Part shown: positions 2,444 to 31,306 of the stretch, piece by piece
Numbering within the stretch: position 1 is the first letter of the stretch
How the letters are laid out: every line of letters begins with the position of its first letter
Source of the DNA: a phage
Direction: 5' to 3' (one strand)
Length of the DNA stretch: 64,000 bases
NCBI GenBank assembly: GCA_024571205.1
Contig: GCA_024571205.1_4523.1
Program-made: the position numbers and the translations under genes
Notes under the pieces: generated by a model
The model's database searches: none
What the model was told of the DNA's origin: nothing
Seen by the model: the letters and a program-made list of their open reading frames with translations, nothing else

Positions 2444-2654
2444 TTCTAAAGCAGATTATTTTAATTCTGTTAATGATAAGAATAAAGCTTTAATTCGCCA
2501 CTTTATTACTGAGATGGGTTATACTGACTCTAAAGATTTGAAAGAGCACATTATCGAATGTTCTGTGGCTAAAAAGTTTTCTTTCACAGACAAATGTTTA
2601 AATGAGGTTATAAATCATTATGAACAATCTTGTAGCAAAACACGATTTCAATAA
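2427..2654 (+). CDS. hypothetical early protein
   Basis: 75 aa ORF overlapping the previous ORF end by 17 nt. Confidence 0.45.
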   Translation: MMRIIDSKADYFNSVNDKNKALIRHFITEMGYTDSKDLKEHIIECSVAKKFSFTDKCLNEVINHYEQSCSKTRFQ

Positions 2655-2728
2655 GGCTTCTGTCCATAAGGACAAGAAGAAATCAGAACTTCAATCTAAA
2701 CGCAAACAAAAACATAAGGGTAAAGACT

Positions 2729-3028
2729 ATGCTTACTAAAATCAAAGAAAATCCTGCCACTGAACTTGTTATTCGATGTGAAGAACTTGCAGAGCTTTAT
2801 CAGGTTAACCGAGAAGTGTGTCGTAGTGTTATCGTAGATATGGAAGATGAAGTCTGTTCTCGTATTCCTTTTAGTGTCGATTTCAACCATATGAAGCCTG
2901 GTGAAATCACTATCGTCTTTGGTTCTGACTATACTGAAGAACGGGCTCTTAATGTCCTAGAATATGAAATGTCGTTCTTTGACATACAGGACTACATTGA
3001 TAGTTATAAGGAACAATATGAGTCATAA
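2729..3028 (+). CDS. acidic small protein; possible Arn-like anti-restriction protein by position and composition
   Basis: 99 aa, strongly acidic (DMEDEV, EYEMSFFDIQDYIDSYKEQYES), located just upstream of asiA where T4 carries arn. Assignment not verified. Confidence 0.4.
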   Translation: MLTKIKENPATELVIRCEELAELYQVNREVCRSVIVDMEDEVCSRIPFSVDFNHMKPGEITIVFGSDYTEERALNVLEYEMSFFDIQDYIDSYKEQYES

Positions 3029-3179
3029 TCTTCAGAACGTAGTAGAGGCCGAACGTGAGCGTGAGGCTTTAATCTATGATGAACTATTGGCCTCGTTCTT
3101 AGCCTTACACTCGTACGAACAGGAAGACTACATTGATTACGTTAAAAGCGTAGAAAAAGCCGTTTACAATCAACACTGA
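3018..3179 (+). CDS. small hypothetical protein (53 aa)
   Basis: ATG at 3018 after SD aagga; the longer track ORF (from 2964) overlaps the preceding gene, so the internal start is preferred. Confidence 0.35.
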   Translation: MSHNLQNVVEAEREREALIYDELLASFLALHSYEQEDYIDYVKSVEKAVYNQH

Positions 3180-3225
3180 TAATGGTACTATACTCCTAAC
3201 AATTAAGTGGAATGAATAAAACGTT

Positions 3226-3498
3226 ATGAATAAAGACATTGAAATCGTACGTGAAATTATTACTATTGCTTCTATTTTGATTAAATTCTCTAGGGAAGAT
3301 ATTGTTGAAGACCGAGCAAATTTCATCGGATTCTTGAATGAGATTGGAATTAAAAAAGATGGTCGGCAGCTAAATCAGAATTCGTTCAGAAAACTAATTA
3401 CAAATTTAACTGCCGAAGAAAAGAAAACACTGATTAGTGAATTCAATGAAGGTTTTGAAAATATTTATCGCCATTTGACGATGTATTCTAACAACTAA
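3226..3498 (+). CDS. asiA: AsiA anti-sigma70 factor
   Basis: 90 aa, MNKDIEIVREIITIASILIKFSREDIVEDRANFIGFLNEIG, matches T4 AsiA in length and sequence as recalled. Confidence 0.92.
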   Translation: MNKDIEIVREIITIASILIKFSREDIVEDRANFIGFLNEIGIKKDGRQLNQNSFRKLITNLTAEEKKTLISEFNEGFENIYRHLTMYSNN

Positions 3499-4203: not shown

Positions 4204-4983
4204 TTAAATCCAGGAGCCGTAGATTGTGCCTGTAGCACCCCATGACGGTGAACTTCCGAATACTGCTCTGCCAGGAGCACCACCGCCAGATCTAGATAAG
4301 TGATTACCCCATCCATCTCCGCCACGACCTCCAGCATCACCGCCATTGCCTCCGCCGAATTGGGAAGTGTAACCGGCCCCGCCCGGGGCGTCATAACTAG
4401 CATTACCACCCGGCCAATTAACGCCACCTCCGCCGATGCCAAATGGTCTACCACCACCGCCACCTGCTGTAGCATTTGGCGCCCAGCTATTCTGTAATGA
4501 CACTGCACCACCTCCGCCACCGCCTGATGCAATAACACCATAGTTCCAAATACGAAGTCTTCCGCCGATATCATTTTGGATTACATCGCCACCATTAGTG
4601 CCTGGGTTTCCGTTTACAGTACCGTTACCACCTCGTCCCCACATATGAACTCCACCATGAATATTCAAAGTAACATATTCATTTGGCGTATCGCCATACA
4701 TAAAGAATAATGGAACATCTTTACTATATGATACCAAATTTCCGGTGATATTAAACACTATAGGTGCACTACCTGCCTCAAAACATCTATCTCGGAACCA
4801 TTGACCGTTGAAGTTATGGTCTGCTCCAAGTGTGTGAATTATTTCTCTTGAACGGCCCGCGAATTGGGACATCCATGAAGGGTTTCCTAAACGAAGTTCC
4901 CTTGAAGCAGCCGTCATCCATCTTTGTCCCGTTTCAGCAACGGCTGAAGTCCCAATCCAACCAGGGATTCCTACTACTGCCAT
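4204..4983 (-). CDS. 38: gp38 tail-fiber adhesin, T2 type, with glycine-rich motifs
   Basis: 259 aa, [24 protein letters not shown]-terminus and C-terminal half with repeated GGGGG motifs, directly downstream of gene 37. T2-type adhesin rather than the T4 chaperone form. Confidence 0.85.
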
Positions 4984-5013
4984 ATAAACCTCCAGGGCCC
5001 GAAGGCCCTTTTA

Positions 5014-8000
5014 TTATTTTATCAATGATTTAATTAATGCTTTCAATTCGGTAATTTCAGATTTCAATTCCTTGATTTCATCTGTATGCTCGTTTATTGC
5101 AGCTGTATTTAAACCAATAATACCGTTATAGTTCAAACGAAGCAGTCCGGTCTCTTTATCTTCAGAAACAAGTTCAGGTAATACTTCTTGAACTTCCTGA
5201 GCAATTAAACCTGCGGACGGTTTAACTTCGTCTGTAACAGAGTTTTTAAGCAGATAAGTATAACCGCCCAATAGTTTAGATTTCTCTTGAGCGTTCTTAA
5301 TAAGCTTAATTTCCGACTTACAACGAATATCAGAACGAATATAAACGTCGTTAACATCAATGTTATCACGAACATACATACCTGCATTACAGTGGAAGTT
5401 AACATCACCGAATGTCTGAGCTAAACCAGGTCTAAAACTAAACACACCTTGGCCGTTTGCATATGCGTTGAAAATACCATCGTTTTCCCAAAGCAAACCG
5501 GTATCGTTATCTCCAAGTACAATACACGGCCCGCCCCATGCAGGGTCACCACCACCAGCTGATACTCTACTGCTCTTAAGTAAGCTTGGAGCATAAAAAG
5601 TACCGTTATGATGGAATTCATATACAGCTTGTGGGTCGTAACCGTTTTCCTGATTACCTACACGAATAATACCTTGTGCCCATGTATTAGTAATGCGTCG
5701 CATACCAAAATCTACACCAGATATGTATCCTTCATTAGTAATACCGGATTTTCCTTTAATAATAGGATAATAACTATCATTACCAACATTACCAAAATCT
5801 ACAAATACCGGTGCTTCTTGATTCCATTGATTTCCCCAACCACCGCCCTGGTGTGCGGCCCATTGTGTACCGTTTATATGGAGGCGGTCTCTATTAAAAT
5901 TAAATGTTCCTTGGCCTTGAGGAGAAAGTGATATTTCTCCGTTATTTGTTATATATACACCGCCTTGTGTAACATAACTGTAAAAACCTAGACCATTGTC
6001 GGCACCGCCTTTACCAATATACCAATTATTGGCCCCGGCCGTATCAGAACGAATAAATGATGAATCACTGGTCAAAGGAGGATTAAGAACTATTCCAGCG
6101 GCATCTTTATTAATCCAAAGAGTGCCGGTCATCGTGTCGCCTTCTTTCGAAACACGAGTCGCAATAGCATCGCGAATATTTGTAGTATCACCGGCAGAAG
6201 TAAACGTTTTCCAGATATCAGACCAGATATTACCATTGCGAGCAATAGTAGCTTCACCGCCGCCAACAGAAACGTTATCTGGGAAGTTAACAGTACCGTC
6301 TTGATTAAAACGAGACGTATGGCCTTGTGATCCATCTTCTTTCAGATGATGAATAACGAATGTACCCGAATTAATTTCAGTACCTAAAGACCAAACGGCT
6401 TTACCATTTAAAAACTTCTGTTTAACAATAGGATAATATTTGCTTACAGCATCATCATCAATTTCCTGGAAAATAGGAGCCGCTTGGGCATATTGAATAT
6501 CATATCCACCTGCGCCAGCGCCATGTCCAACAAATTTAATATATCCGTTTGCTGCGAACGTATTGTAACTTGATTGTAAATCTGGAATAGTAACTTTACC
6601 AGTATCTAAAGCCAAACTAAACGGGCGAAGTGGGCCGATATCACCATTTTTGCCTTCGCCATAAGCAGTTGGAATAATATGAAGACTTCCTTCTGAACGT
6701 CTAAAAATGGCTCCATAATCTGCGTTCCAAATACGAAGAGCATTCACTGCTCCAGATGAAATTTCACCTGTTGTGTGAACTCCTCTATCTCCAGCAGTAA
6801 CACCAGATGATTCAAATGAACCATTAACGTTCATTTCTACTTCGCCAGTAGTAAGTCTTTGAATATAGCTCATCCAGCTAGTTGCATCAGAAATTTCCAT
6901 AACGTTTTTACGGATACCTCCGCTTGGATCAACAAACGTATTACCCCAAACTTTAATATCCATATTATCAACCGAGCTGTATCCTGTTGTGTTGCCTCTA
7001 AACATTAGTGTAGAAGAATTATTTCTACCATCTATATTTACAGAACCGCCAATAACGTCAATATTACCAGGAGTAACTAACAAACCGCCGTGAGTATTAA
7101 TGTTTGTAGTACCCTTGCCGCGGAAATAATGATGATAGTTACCGCCTTGATAATATCCCAAAAGAGTCTGACCATCTCCAAACGCGTTATTATCGTGATA
7201 TGTCACAACAGTAGCAAGAGCATAGTTTTCAGTTGGAGGAGTAGTTAAATCGGTTCCATTAGTAGAATATCCAGCTACAAATTTTCTTAGGCTAGTTGTT
7301 TCGCTAGGATTAAATAAAAACGTTTTTGTTCCATTATTAACGCTGAAATAATATCCGTCTTGATGCCATTTAAATCCAGTATCATTATCTCCTAAAGCAA
7401 TGCTAGATGGTCCTAATATTGAATAATCTTTATTACCTGGTGTTAAACCGATAGAAATTGAGTGACTTGATTTAATTCCGCCGCTCCAGGTAAATGACCA
7501 AAGATAAGCATCTAATCCATCTCCACTATACCAAGTTATTCCATCATTATCTTTAACTTCATGGAAAATACCAGAACCAACGGCATTACGCATGACACGA
7601 AGATGATTAATAGCAGTAGTGCTTTCAGACAATGGAACATTGTCTGCCATCGAATAGATGTCATAATCACCCGTAGATTTATTATTAGTAATGACTTTGT
7701 TGGTTAGAATTTGTGGAGACGAAATAGATTTCCATGCTGATACTTCAGGTGAAGTAAATAGTCCACTGCCTGAAAATGCATAAGTGCTTTCGCTACCAGC
7801 GGCATAGTCTTGAACCCTGATATTAAGTACTTGTGTAGTTAAACCATCATTAGCCGGGGCATAAATGATTCCGCGTTCGCGACTATTGTTATCGAAAAAA
7901 CGAACATGTGCTGTGCCTGAACTTTTTGTAATAAGTTCACCGCCTTCAGTCATAATCTGCCCGGCGGCAATAATATCGCGAGTTACTCGAGCAATACCAG

Positions 8001-26382: not shown

Positions 26383-26411
26383 TTTACAAACTCTCAGGAG
26401 CAGAGTATAAT
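26382..26411 (+). promoter_or_regulatory. T4-type early promoter
   Basis: GTTTACA -35, 17-nt spacer, TATAAT -10. Confidence 0.55.
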
Positions 26412-26739: not shown

Positions 26740-27825
<1,086 letters not shown>

Positions 27826-27826
<1 letters not shown>

Positions 27827-28017
27827 TGAAACGATTATATGAAGTGATTGAGGCCATCGAACAGCATAAAGAATATTTGTTTGTAGCCTGGCCTTTAGTA
27901 AATGGACAGTTCGGTATTGATGTGCTGGACTATGAGCATGAAGAACGTTTGGACGGTGGTATATTTGATAACGTCGACCAGGCAATTGAATGGTTAAATG
28001 AAAACTATGTACGATAA
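27826..28017 (+). CDS. hypothetical protein (cd.x block)
   Basis: 63 aa ORF. Confidence 0.45.
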
Positions 28018-28222
28018 ACATCATGAAATCGAAGATGAAGCATACAAAATGCTTCGTAAACTAGTGGGACTTAATATGAGTTCTACATTAATCAACAAGC
28101 TTACCGAAATTCGTAACGACCTGAATACTCGTTACAAAGGCGAATATCATGTAGAGTTTGTTCCTGTAGGCGAACCGACCGAGCAATTTGTTGTTCGAGT
28201 TAAAGTAAATACTGTACACTGA
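27998..28222 (+). CDS. hypothetical protein (cd.x block)
   Basis: 74 aa ORF. Confidence 0.45.
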   Translation: MKTMYDKHHEIEDEAYKMLRKLVGLNMSSTLINKLTEIRNDLNTRYKGEYHVEFVPVGEPTEQFVVRVKVNTVH

Positions 28223-28229
28223 GGTAATT

Positions 28230-28505
28230 ATGTTCCCTAAATATTCTGAAATTGTAAAGGTCGTTTTTAGTCAGATTATCGCAAATCATTTCTTTGATAA
28301 GCTGGATACTGCTACTGAGCTTAAGGTCCACTCTGAACTACTCTACGTTTTGAATACTCTGGTGCCTGACCAAGTGGATTCTGTGTCTGTTACATTGCTG
28401 CCCAGCTCGGCTCATTCGATTGTTGTGTTTGGTCTTGATGCTGAACTAGTAATTCAGTGTGAAGTTGATTTCGATTCACAAGAAATTAAATGTTTTGCAA
28501 TTTAA
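28230..28505 (+). CDS. hypothetical protein (cd.x block)
   Basis: 91 aa ORF. Confidence 0.5.
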   Translation: MFPKYSEIVKVVFSQIIANHFFDKLDTATELKVHSELLYVLNTLVPDQVDSVSVTLLPSSAHSIVVFGLDAELVIQCEVDFDSQEIKCFAI

Positions 28506-28535
28506 GTTTACAACATGGTGGAGTTGTGATACTAT
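28506..28535 (+). promoter_or_regulatory. T4-type early promoter
   Basis: GTTTACA -35, 17-nt spacer, TACTAT -10. Confidence 0.5.
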
Positions 28536-28563
28536 AACTCTACCAACAAATGAGGAAATTGAA

Positions 28564-28800
28564 ATGCTAAGTGAAAATCCAATTACAGTACACGAATTTC
28601 AGATTAAAGTAAAAGAATTTGCTCAAGCACTCATCAATAAAGTGTCTGAACGTTTCCAAGATGCAACATTACGAGTTATTCAAGAATCTCCACGTTCTTT
28701 TCTCATAATCGTTAATCCTAAAGATGGTGACCAAATTACTAATCTTAAATTAGGCAGTGATGGTCTTGTTGAAGCAACTCGAGTATATGGAACACTATAA
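28564..28800 (+). CDS. hypothetical protein (cd.x block)
   Basis: 78 aa from ATG 28564 after early promoter 28506-28535 and SD gagg; the track ORF start is inside the promoter. Confidence 0.45.
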   Translation: MLSENPITVHEFQIKVKEFAQALINKVSERFQDATLRVIQESPRSFLIIVNPKDGDQITNLKLGSDGLVEATRVYGTL

Positions 28801-28920
28801 TGAGAGCTATCTCATTACTATCGAGAATGGTCATAAATCTGAGCACTACCAACTTAGCCTGTCTAATCCGGTTAAAGGTATTGTTGAATCAGAATCTGTT
28901 TATATCTCCTAAGGATTGTT

Positions 28921-29913
28921 ATGTTACCTGTTGTCGGAAAACTTATTTCTCCAAAAGAACTGGCTGAGATTATTCCTTTGTCGGAAGCTTACGCATCACA
29001 AGTGGCTTCTCATCGCGAACAAGTTAATTCGATTATGAATGGTGAAGACCCACGCAAACTTATTGTTGTAGGTCCTTGTTCAATTCATGACCCTATTGCT
29101 GCTGTTGAATACGGCAAACGTCTGGCTGAACTTCAAACTCGTCTTCCTAATGTTCTGTTAGTGATGCGCGTTTATTTTGAAAAGCCTCGAACTACCGTAG
29201 GTTGGAAAGGTCTTGTAAATGATCCATATCTTGACGGAAGTTTTGATATGAACCACGGTCTTATAGTTGCACGAACATTGTGTCGTAAACTTCTACGTAT
29301 GGGACTTCCATTAGCAACTGAAGTATTAGACCCATTCACGATTAAGTATCTTTCTGGTATTTTCTCATGGGTTGCTATTGGCGCCCGTACGACTGAAAGT
29401 CAGACACATCGTGAAATTGCTTCAGGTCTACCGATGTGCGTAGGCTTCAAGAACGCAACCAATGGTTCTATTAAAGTAGCTACAGACGCGATGTATAGTG
29501 CCGCCTGGCCTCATCGGTATATTGGTATGGACGTCGATGGTACTGTAGGCATTGTTGAAGCTGAAGGTAATCAGAATACGCATATCGTATTGCGTGGCGG
29601 GACCAACGGCCCGAACTATCATTCTTCTGATATTCAAGAAGCTTCTAACAAAGCAAGGGCAGTAGGTCTGAATCATTATGTAATGGTTGACTGTAGCCAT
29701 GCAAACGCTGAAGGGCATTATAGCAATCAAATTGGTATTGGTAAAAATTTAGCAGCTAATGATTTGGTCAAAGGAATTATGATAGAATCGTTCCTACATG
29801 AAGGAAATCAAAAAATTTCTGATAATATGTCCTATGGCGTTTCCGTTACCGATGCGTGCATCAGTTGGGAACAAACTAAAGAGCTGTTAACTTATATTAA
29901 TAAGGTTCAATAA
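28921..29913 (+). CDS. 3-deoxy-D-arabino-heptulosonate-7-phosphate (DAHP) synthase, class I alpha (AroG/AroF/AroH-like)
   Basis: 330 aa with the hallmark motifs LIVVGPCSIHDP, FEKPRTTVGWKGLVNDP, IGARTTESQ, CVGFKNATNGS, VDCSHANAEG, ESFLHEGNQ, TDACISWEQT, colinear with E. coli AroG as recalled. Confidence 0.85.
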   Translation: MLPVVGKLISPKELAEIIPLSEAYASQVASHREQVNSIMNGEDPRKLIVVGPCSIHDPIAAVEYGKRLAELQTRLPNVLLVMRVYFEKPRTTVGWKGLVNDPYLDGSFDMNHGLIVARTLCRKLLRMGLPLATEVLDPFTIKYLSGIFSWVAIGARTTESQTHREIASGLPMCVGFKNATNGSIKVATDAMYSAAWPHRYIGMDVDGTVGIVEAEGNQNTHIVLRGGTNGPNYHSSDIQEASNKARAVGLNHYVMVDCSHANAEGHYSNQIGIGKNLAANDLVKGIMIESFLHEGNQKISDNMSYGVSVTDACISWEQTKELLTYINKVQ

Positions 29914-30494
29914 TGAAAGCTAGCACATACCTTCAGATTGCATATCTGATTTCTCAAGAATCAAAATGTTGTTCATGGAAAGTTGGTGCCGTCATTGAAA
30001 AAGATGGACGCATTATCTCTACTGGATATAACGGTTCACCTGCAGGTGGCGTTAACTGTTGCGAACATGCATCTGAAAATGGTTGGTTGAAGAATAAACC
30101 AATCCCAGTCATCGTTGCTGGACATAAAGAAGGCACTACAGCATTTGGACGGGTAGATAATTTTGTTTTAGCCAAAGAACATCGAGCTGCTCATAGTGCA
30201 TGGTCTGCTAATAATGAAATCCATGCAGAATTGAATGCAATTTTGTTTGCCGCTCGTAAAGGTAATTCTATTGAAGGTGCTACGTTATATACGACGCTTT
30301 CTCCATGTCCTGATTGTACTAAAGCTATTACGCAGTCAGGTATTAAAAAGGTCGTATACGCAGAATTATACGACCGATCTCCTGAAAATTGGGCAGATAT
30401 TCTAAAACAAGCTGGTATTGAAGTAATTCAGTACTCTCGTAATAATCTTCGTTCTCTGAATTGGGAACAAATCCGAAACTTTTGTGGTGAATAA
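29913..30494 (+). CDS. cd: dCMP deaminase
   Basis: 193 aa, ...YNGSPAGGVNCCEH...HAELNAILFAA...LSPCPDCTKAI zinc-binding deaminase motifs; T4 Cd length. Confidence 0.92.
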   Translation: MKASTYLQIAYLISQESKCCSWKVGAVIEKDGRIISTGYNGSPAGGVNCCEHASENGWLKNKPIPVIVAGHKEGTTAFGRVDNFVLAKEHRAAHSAWSANNEIHAELNAILFAARKGNSIEGATLYTTLSPCPDCTKAITQSGIKKVVYAELYDRSPENWADILKQAGIEVIQYSRNNLRSLNWEQIRNFCGE

Positions 30495-30495
30495 T

Positions 30496-30792
30496 ATGAT
30501 TTTAACTGAACAAAAAACTATGGTTCTTCGTGAACGTATTAAAACTATTCTGTCTGTAGGCGTTCATTGTGTTGTATTTGAAAAGGCTAACGGTGATGTA
30601 CGCACTATGTTTGCTTCGCGCGATGAACTTGAAGTCAAATATGAAAATAACAATCCGGCAACAGAAGTTCGTTATGAACCTCGTGAATCAGTTCGAGCAT
30701 TCGATACCAAGTTAGGTCAGTGGCGTTCTTTCCGCCTTGATAAAGTAATTTCGGTTGATGGTACTCCGGTCGAACGTTTGCTTCTTATGTAA
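30496..30792 (+). CDS. hypothetical protein
   Basis: 98 aa from ATG 30496, immediately after the cd stop. Confidence 0.5.
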   Translation: MILTEQKTMVLRERIKTILSVGVHCVVFEKANGDVRTMFASRDELEVKYENNNPATEVRYEPRESVRAFDTKLGQWRSFRLDKVISVDGTPVERLLLM

Positions 30793-31182: not shown

Positions 31183-31306
31183 TATAAATAACTATATGAA
31201 GAGAACACTCTTCTAAGCGGTAGCCTACAACTGAGAGACTTGTCGAAAGAAGGTGAAATTCAGACGAACGTGGCTACTAAATATTATCTCGAATTGAGAA
31301 TTTAAA

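Follow-up and report, generated by a model that had tools for sequence, protein, structure and literature searches.

A DAHP synthase carried by T4-like coliphages has a rebuilt inhibitor pocket and a shortened N-terminus and is predicted to escape aromatic feedback

Genes for 3-deoxy-7-phosphoheptulonate synthase (DAHP synthase, DAHPS), the entry enzyme of the shikimate pathway, have been reported in several bacteriophages related to T4. One is mentioned in the genome paper of phage phiC120 (PMC8022965), and another was proposed as an amino-acid auxiliary metabolic gene (AMG) in Klebsiella phage KLB31 (PMC11845039). The metabolic rewiring attributed to lytic T4-like phages usually concerns nucleotides, not the biosynthesis of amino acids. 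Here we analyze the DAHPS gene at positions 28921-29913 (+ strand) of a 64,000-nt stretch of DNA (contig GCA_024571205.1_4523.1 of GenBank assembly GCA_024571205.1, hereafter the window) from a coliphage of the genus Mosigvirus, an RB69/JS09-like relative of T4. A megablast search with this gene alone recovered 146 phage records, 140 of them at ≥95% nucleotide identity, and most carried the annotation phospho-2-dehydro-3-deoxyheptonate aldolase, AroF, AroG or DAHP synthase. Since the gene is annotated and catalogued in more than 100 phages and an AMG role has been proposed, it is already known at the level of annotation and hypothesis. What is new here is the difference in the regulatory pocket and N-terminus, the prediction of feedback insensitivity and the reconstruction of a cassette transfer; the identity, fold and intact active site of the enzyme, the pocket changes of its clade, purifying selection, synteny and the origin of the cassette are described below from direct observation. 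With a probability of roughly 0.6, we favor a role as a feedback-insensitive entry enzyme of the shikimate pathway that would act early in infection and sustain the flow to chorismate.

The inhibitor site of the homologous cellular enzymes is well described. In Escherichia coli, the published list of inhibitor-site residues maps to AroG M147, Q151, D155, L179, S180, F209, S211, V212 and K214; Q151/Q152 and S180/S181 bind the main chain of the inhibitor and D155 makes a stabilising salt bridge (PMC9529685). The AroG variant P150L is completely feedback-resistant to Phe, and S180F, F209A and F209S are also among the feedback-resistant variants (PMC9529685). We compared phage and bacterial enzymes column by column, without prior choice of positions, considering all columns conserved at ≥90% both in the phage group (n = 25) and in the nearest bacterial group, a set of AroF-like homologues (n = 98). 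This threshold was reached by 104 columns, and 98 of these were identical between the phage clade and the bacterial homologues. The only six that differed were P150I, Q151K, D155G, S180P, F209Y and T223A (AroG numbering, bacteria to phage), all located in or beside the Phe/Tyr inhibitor pocket and none in the active site. In the window enzyme these residues are I141, K142, G146, P171, Y200 and A214, respectively, with codons between 29341 and 29562 on the + strand (I141-K142, 29341-29346; G146, 29356-29358; P171, 29431-29433; Y200, 29518-29520; A214, 29560-29562). The canonical inhibitor-contact residues corresponding to AroG P150, Q151, D155, S180 and F209 were not kept, and their replacements are fixed in the clade. 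The sixth position, T223, is outside the published inhibitor-site list and lies two residues past V221 on the same hairpin strand; V221A is itself listed as feedback-resistant.

A parallel to one of these replacements is found in yeast, where ARO4 Q166K is a feedback-resistant allele (PMC5879953). ARO4 Q166 corresponds to AroG Q151 by a constant offset of +15, and the Gln-to-Lys change is the same as that seen at phage K142. The phage enzymes also differ at the N-terminus, where the conserved (S/T)P motif is preceded by 8-12 residues, compared to 16-53 in the 98 bacterial homologues. The window DAHPS has 10 residues ahead of the equivalent of AroG P19, compared to 17-19 in AroF, AroG and AroH, and it lacks the extension at the N-terminus that helps to form the inhibitor site (AroG D6/D7/I10; AroF N8/I11). 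Considered together, the pocket changes, the short N-terminus and the published mutant positions make loss of inhibition by aromatic amino acids the most economical prediction. The phage enzyme is thus predicted to be blind to Tyr, Phe and Trp, and the host could no longer switch it off. A feedback-insensitive isozyme had been raised as one option in the initial annotation of this stretch, which was made from the sequence without database searches, and the rebuilt pocket and short N-terminus give that idea specific sequence support.

The assignment of the gene is based on profiles, a structure match and alignment. In the window sequence and its translation the open reading frame (ORF) starts with ATG, runs for 330 codons and stops with TAA, exactly as the initial annotation described it, and all six motifs quoted there (GPCSIHD, KPRTTVGWKGL, IGARTTESQ, DCSHANA, ESFLHEGNQ and TDACISWE) are present in the product. 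The Pfam search suggested at that time was run and returned PF00793 (DAHP_synth_1) with E = 9.1e-75 and 251.5 bits against a cutoff of 25.5, in a match spanning nearly the entire profile. Among NCBIfam models, TIGR00034 (aroFGH; 427.3 bits, cutoff 173.2) and NF009395 (454.4 bits, cutoff 343) were matched, and the phage protein scored below the AroG equivalog cutoff (NF006723; 363, cutoff 568) and below the curated AroH cutoff (NF009396; 386, cutoff 463). By sequence, the nearest solved structure is the Tyr-sensitive AroF of E. coli (6agm, E = 4e-105). An AlphaFold model built with 34 homologues (predicted local distance difference test [pLDDT] 91.6, predicted template modelling score [pTM] 0.91) was superposed by Foldseek on type I-alpha enzymes from Neisseria meningitidis and E. 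coli (4hso, 8e0x and 1kfl) with a template modelling (TM) score of 0.95 and a root-mean-square deviation of 1.6 Å. The beta6a/beta6b hairpin specific to type I-alpha is kept in the (beta/alpha)8-barrel of the model, with strands at residues 198-203 and 209-214. Motifs, profile scores and structure match place the observation far beyond chance, and the proposed class I membership is confirmed, at the level of subtype I-alpha, by profiles, the PDB and Foldseek. A KDO8P (3-deoxy-D-manno-octulosonate 8-phosphate) synthase (KdsA) or a non-enzymatic homologue was considered separately and ruled out by profile, structure and motif: the top Pfam, NCBIfam, PDB and Foldseek matches are all type I-alpha DAHPS, and the KPRT motif is present.

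The catalytic Cys, His, Glu and Asp named in the initial annotation are retained. Cys53 (codon 29077-29079), His260 (29698-29700), Glu289 (29785-29787) and Asp311 (29851-29853; all + strand) align with the metal ligands C61, H268, E302 and D326 of AroG, as well as with those of AroF and AroH, and this tetrad is invariant in 25 of 25 members of the phage clade. The residues that bind phosphoenolpyruvate (PEP) and the phosphate of erythrose-4-phosphate (E4P) are also kept (R83, K88, R90, T91, R156, K177 and R225, equivalent to AroG R92, K97, R99, T100, R165, K186 and R234). Metal-ligand and substrate-binding positions have zero entropy across the clade. The phage DAHPS is therefore most likely a catalytically competent, metal-dependent enzyme, predicted to convert PEP and E4P to DAHP, and nothing in its sequence points to a changed substrate.

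Related genes are widespread among T4-like phages. A tblastn search returned 213 records, adding T4-like phages of Klebsiella, Serratia, Proteus, Edwardsiella, Enterobacter, Erwinia and Kosakonia at 55-77% identity, and the PHROGs database has a dedicated family (phrog_5045, E = 8e-182) in the category 'moron, auxiliary metabolic gene and host takeover'. The gene was found in the same slot between pseT and cd in at least six T4-like genera (Mosigvirus, Kanagawavirus, Winklervirus, Marfavirus, Bragavirus and Kagamiyamavirus). In the database search, phage-type proteins of 319-343 aa covered 55-98% identity and bacterial enzymes of 341-388 aa reached a plateau at 50-55%. In a neighbor-joining tree of the 120 best database matches and the E. 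coli isozymes, the phage copies formed one clade with a bootstrap value of 100/100, and their nearest cellular relatives were AroF-like, Tyr-type enzymes. Within Mosigvirus-type phages, about 92% of records carry the gene (intact in 140, compared to 152 with the arabinose-5-phosphate isomerase of this lineage, both counted at ≥95%); it is missing from RB69, JK36 and JK42. The survey across T4-like genomes that had been suggested is therefore positive in at least six genera and negative in these three phages. The gene was initially regarded as an AMG, and this view is supported by the occurrence of a host-type enzyme in a virulent phage, its conservation, purifying selection and the phrog_5045 category.

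The position first described, between pseT and cd, is correct and can be refined to the interval between cd.2 and cd, which is the slot of cd.1 in T4. T4 itself has only the small ORFs cd.1 to cd.5 at this locus (order pseT, cd.5, cd.4, cd.3, cd.2, cd.1, cd), in line with the initial annotation. In the window, the conserved interval begins with pseT (polynucleotide kinase/phosphatase, 26927-27826, +), and the resident cd.2 (DUF7320/phrog_1504, 28564-28800, +) is followed by an ORF of 41 aa (28787-28912, +), DAHPS and cd (dCMP deaminase, 193 aa, 29913-30494, +), with the DAHPS stop codon TAA (29911-29913) overlapping the ATG of cd (29913-29915) by one base. In RB69, cd.2 runs straight into cd, and the gene thus represents a true insertion polymorphism. 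Alignment with RB69 showed an extra segment of 1,113 bp in the window (28800-29912), flanked by an imperfect direct repeat with its left copy, ATAATGAgAGCTAtCtCAT, at 28797-28815 (+) and its right copy, ATAATGAAAGCTAGCACAT, at 29910-29928 (+), the latter forming the start of cd. The two copies are identical at 16 of 19 positions, and nothing else within 5 kb matches the left junction in this way.

The 41-aa ORF at the left edge of the segment derives from the C-terminal half of a donor phage's cd.2, of which it is a diverged remnant. It matches positions 44-76 of the cd.2 family profile phrog_1504 (E = 1.8e-5), and its best local alignment is with cd.2 of Kanagawavirus Entb_45 (z = 11.2; 0 of 500 shuffles), followed by cd.2 of Klebsiella phage P545 (z = 8.7-9.5). 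The alignment with the window's own cd.2 is poor (z = 2.9), and BLASTP found no match between these two; the kinship was visible only with the PHROG profile and donor-type cd.2 sequences. Kanagawaviruses PEi20 and Entb_45 have exactly the order cd.3-cd.2-DAHPS-cd with tight junctions, and their DAHPS is the closest outgroup to the Mosigvirus copy (76-77% identity). Gene order, outgroup position and the cd.2 remnant together show that the Mosigvirus DAHPS arrived as a 1,113-bp cassette imported from a Kanagawavirus-like phage, leaving a cd.2 scar. The arrangement differs in other genera. The Mosigvirus gene abuts cd directly and is preceded by the cd.2 remnant, whereas an ORF lies between DAHPS and cd in X20 and EcS1 (a cd.1-family ORF) and in P545 (an HNH/NUMOD3 homing endonuclease). 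A metagenomic T4-like contig has the order pseT, short ORF, DAHPS, cd.

Several neighboring features of this interval were also recorded. The HNH/NUMOD3 homing endonuclease beside DAHPS in P545 is at 4980-5549 of the compared stretch, and Proteus phage PM2 has an annotated homing endonuclease beside DAHPS in its pseT-cd interval (2606-3322 of the compared stretch); homing endonucleases could plausibly drive the exchange of cassettes among T4-like phages. The cd gene of RB69 is annotated with 510 nt (169 aa; 5743-6252 of the compared stretch), compared to 582 nt (193 aa) in the window and T4. RB69 and the window share the start ATGAAAGCTAGC of cd, which places the difference in the interior or at the C-terminus of the RB69 gene, or in an annotation or sequencing issue. 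Downstream of cd, the product of gene 31.1 (30484-30792, +) matches Pfam WYL_2, an Sm-like SH3 beta-barrel (E = 3.6e-9). It also has a weak match to a PHROG labelled tail fiber protein, and its P545 homologue is annotated 'tail fibers protein', probably a propagated mislabel.

Sequence divergence and composition indicate a long residence in phage genomes. Between genera, the ratio of non-synonymous to synonymous substitution rates (dN/dS) of DAHPS was 0.18-0.23; synonymous divergence (dS) is saturated at this distance, and these values are therefore upper bounds. GC content at third codon positions (GC3) was 0.29 in Mosigvirus, 0.31 in Serratia phage X20, 0.37 in Klebsiella phage P545 and 0.18 in Proteus phage PM2, compared to 0.50-0.57 in the aroF, aroG and aroH genes of E. 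coli. GC3 tracks the genome of each phage, which identifies the gene as fully ameliorated; it is an old resident of phage genomes without a close cellular donor. A different picture emerged within Mosigvirus. The window and JS09 copies of DAHPS are separated by five synonymous and five non-synonymous differences, too few for dN/dS, and dS was 0.022 for DAHPS compared to 0.235 for pseT and 0.172 for cd. Low dS in DAHPS is consistent with recent spread, and the mosaic of dS values suggests recent recombinational homogenisation of sub-kilobase blocks. Within the same interval (26927-30494), dS was 0 for cd.4, 0.038 for cd.2 and 0 for the 41-aa ORF. The cd.3 gene (28230-28505, +) shares 67% protein and 71% nucleotide identity with cd.3 of JS09 (dS ~1.5), whereas the flanking cd.4 and cd.2 are 99-100% identical, pointing to a sharp allelic replacement of cd.3 alone.

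The + strand carries all genes between 26440 and 30792, and neighbors overlap or are separated by at most 8 nt. DAHPS has its own Shine-Dalgarno sequence, AAGGA (28911-28915, +), located 5 nt before the ATG and overlapping the stop codon of the upstream 41-aa ORF. The packed same-strand block, this ribosome-binding site and the stop/start overlap with cd point to expression in early or mid infection, and DAHPS is most likely co-expressed with pseT and cd in the prereplicative phase. By consensus match, the best sigma-70-like (early-type) promoter candidate (TTTACA-17-TATAAT, 11/12; 26383-26411, +) stands at the head of the packed array, MotA-box-like sites were found at ~27519 inside pseT (TGCTTCA-12-TACAAT) and at ~30795, and a late-promoter motif, TATAAATA, occurs just once, at 31183. 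A sigma-70-like match on the opposite strand inside DAHPS (29717-29745, -; TTTACC-17-TATAAT with an extended -10 TG, 10/12) is probably a chance occurrence in AT-rich DNA.

In the function we favor, the enzyme would be made in early or mid infection alongside those of nucleotide metabolism and would condense PEP and E4P to DAHP in the first committed step of the shikimate pathway. With the N-terminal part of the inhibitor site lost and the inhibitor-contact and pocket-stabilising residues replaced, it would not respond to Tyr, Phe or Trp, and carbon could keep entering chorismate after the shut-off of host gene expression. The remaining six shikimate enzymes of the host would complete the pathway, and chorismate would then feed the aromatic amino acids and possibly para-aminobenzoate/folate and quinones. 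Feedback insensitivity, the timing of expression and the physiological benefit are what we infer for this enzyme; in metabolic engineering, a feedback-resistant DAHPS alone raises pathway flux (PMC5879953). The frd and td genes lie ~10 kb upstream of DAHPS on the same strand (JS09 offsets), and on this ground the link to the phage folate genes drawn in the initial annotation is reasonable, if speculative.

Several observations weigh against this function. The pocket shows no drift: mean entropy in the phage clade is 0.54 for its positions and 1.02 for the rest of the protein, and just 2.6% of randomly drawn sets of positions reach so low a value. This conservation fits a locked state and a new effector equally well. 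In a wider view of the family, obtained by searching cluster representatives spanning the whole family with a profile of the phage clade, 66 of 130 single-domain representatives deviated at no fewer than two of the six pocket positions, and several had very short N-termini too. Non-canonical pockets are therefore recurrent in the family, which lowers the surprise of finding one here and means that such a pocket alone does not prove deregulation. No enzyme assay, complementation, phage-mutant or expression data were found in the searchable literature, and counts of promoter-like matches in the promoter/terminator scan were not above shuffled expectation, so that the timing of expression is taken only from gene packing. 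In the part of JS09 that corresponds to the window, the annotation lists no further gene for the shikimate pathway, chorismate use or folate synthesis, and a scan of the ORFs that separate DAHPS from cd in X20, EcS1, P545, PM2 and the metagenomic contig revealed no chorismate mutase or similar enzyme; these ORFs encode cd.1-family proteins, proteins of unknown function or a homing endonuclease. With no companion shikimate genes, the phage would supply only the flux-controlling entry step and the host the rest. Finally, RB69, JK36 and JK42 do well without DAHPS, which is thus dispensable under at least some conditions.

The same family-wide search showed that the phage combination I-K-G-P-Y-A was absent from all 130 single-domain representatives, and it returned no separate phage-type cluster. 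Many uncharacterised type I-alpha lineages may be unregulated or differently regulated. The top representative match, P0121 (799 aa), is a tandem fusion of two canonical DAHPS domains; P0122 (730 aa) likewise joins two complete DAHPS domains in a single polypeptide, in which several catalytic-motif residues look degenerate, e.g., GPVSAHD and GPEAIHD in place of GPCSIHD.

The conservation of the pocket raises the question of whether the enzyme is still allosteric and responds to a different, infection-relevant ligand rather than to an aromatic amino acid. The six replaced residues are almost invariant in a clade that has diverged to 55% identity, the pocket is more conserved than the protein average, the beta6a/beta6b hairpin that builds the inhibitor site is retained, and the alternative pocket residues of many other lineages suggest that the site is evolvable. 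However, the N-terminal segment that completes the site is missing, S180P and D155G look disruptive rather than ligand-tuning, the conservation could equally reflect dimer-interface or structural constraints, and no candidate ligand is indicated by any data; we consider this explanation unlikely. A broader proposal, which we view as somewhat more doubtful, is that the rebuilt pocket serves as a new sensor or as a permanent 'on' lock, making the enzyme a phage-controlled valve on central carbon that would either drain E4P and PEP in favor of pentose phosphates (for nucleotides and arabinosyl-hydroxymethylcytosine) or answer a phage-specific metabolite. If true, it would do in enterobacterial phages what the pentose-phosphate auxiliary genes do in cyanophages. 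In a separate explanation, the enzyme would chiefly be an irreversible sink for E4P and PEP that pulls the non-oxidative pentose-phosphate equilibria toward pentose phosphates, supplying nucleotides and the arabinose of hydroxymethylcytosine DNA, with aromatic compounds incidental. The gene does overlap cd among nucleotide-metabolism genes, the arabinose pathway draws on ribulose-5-phosphate (PMC13326640), and an RB69-type arabinose-5-phosphate isomerase occurs in most DAHPS-bearing genera (Mosigvirus, Winklervirus, Kanagawavirus including KLB31, Bragavirus phiP4-3, EcS1 and Kosakonia phage Kc304). This co-occurrence is nevertheless partial and confounded by shared ancestry, as at least 22 Klebsiella phages have DAHPS without the isomerase, and 57 Acinetobacter phages along with RB69, JK36 and JK42 have the isomerase without DAHPS. 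RB69 makes arabinosyl-hydroxymethylcytosine in the absence of DAHPS (PMC6024577), none of the DNA-modification literature examined mentions a link between DAHPS and arabinosylation, and the sink mechanism is purely inferential, leaving this an improbable account.

Two further explanations concern the reaction itself and the selective value of the gene. A shift in substrate (e.g., use of arabinose-5-phosphate or some other sugar phosphate), with a product other than DAHP, might be imagined because the DAHPS/KDO8P synthase superfamily spans several aldose-phosphate acceptors and these phages make arabinose-5-phosphate. E. coli DAHPS weakly accepts 5-carbon sugar phosphates. The known PEP and E4P residues, including the KPRT(T) loop, are however identical to those of AroF, AroG and AroH and clade-invariant, the clade-specific changes are all in the regulatory pocket with none in the active site, and the best profile matches are DAHPS equivalogs and not KDO8P synthase, making such a shift extremely improbable. 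The gene could instead be a selectively neutral passenger (moron) that spreads with a recombination-prone pseT-cd interval rich in homing endonucleases. Its dispensability in RB69, JK36 and JK42, its movement as a cassette, the endonucleases of PM2 and P545 in this interval, and the very low dS within Mosigvirus (0.022, compared to 0.17-0.24 for the flanks), in keeping with recent spread, would all suit a passenger. A neutral gene is difficult to reconcile with an ORF that stays intact and an active site that does not vary in at least six genera whose identity falls to 55%, dN/dS of at most ~0.2, a composition fully ameliorated to each phage and retention in ~92% of Mosigvirus-type records, and we regard neutrality as very unlikely.

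If the enzyme is indeed feedback-insensitive, the long retention of a deregulated shikimate entry enzyme in at least six genera would imply that phage yield in natural hosts can be limited by products derived from chorismate, which could be aromatic amino acids, folate or quinones. The prediction is sharp and cheap to examine, in that the phage DAHPS should be active yet blind to Tyr, Phe and Trp, and RB69 and JS09-like phages offer a natural presence/absence pair for fitness. The locus also illustrates in detail how a cassette passed from one T4-like genus to another, and a compact, naturally feedback-resistant DAHPS could serve the metabolic engineering of aromatic compounds.

Compared to described systems, the window copy is essentially no different from published Mosigvirus DAHPS (98.5-99.7% identity), and it shares family, slot and pocket signature with the phrog_5045 enzymes of other T4-like phages (JS09 YP_009037555, PEi20 gp218, Serratia phage X20 and Klebsiella phage KLB31). 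T4-like cyanophages carry central-carbon AMGs (talC transaldolase, CP12, zwf/gnd) with experimental support. The phage DAHPS resembles these as a single host-derived enzyme at a metabolic control point in a lytic T4-like phage, and differs in pathway and host group and in being known from sequence alone. Among cellular enzymes, E. coli AroF (PDB 6AGM/6AGL) is 51% identical over the full length, with the same TIM barrel and beta6a/beta6b insertion, metal ligands and PEP/E4P residues, and the phage enzyme has the Tyr-type residues of AroF-like enzymes at AroG positions 147 (Pro) and 211 (Gly). It differs from AroF in the replacement of P151, Q152, D156, S181 and F210 by I, K, G, P and Y, in an N-terminus ~8-9 residues shorter that does not include the AroF N8 region, in a shorter C-terminus and in its phage-like GC3 (0.29 compared to 0.50). 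The engineered or selected feedback-resistant DAHP synthases compared with the phage enzyme include yeast ARO4 K229L as well as the resistant alleles AroG D146N and AroF P148L, whose equivalent positions are unchanged in the phage DAHPS. At the positions of AroG P150L, S180F and F209A/S, by contrast, the phage clade is naturally substituted, and where engineered enzymes were altered at such sites, the phage enzyme has five or six changes together with an N-terminal truncation, fixed over a long evolution.

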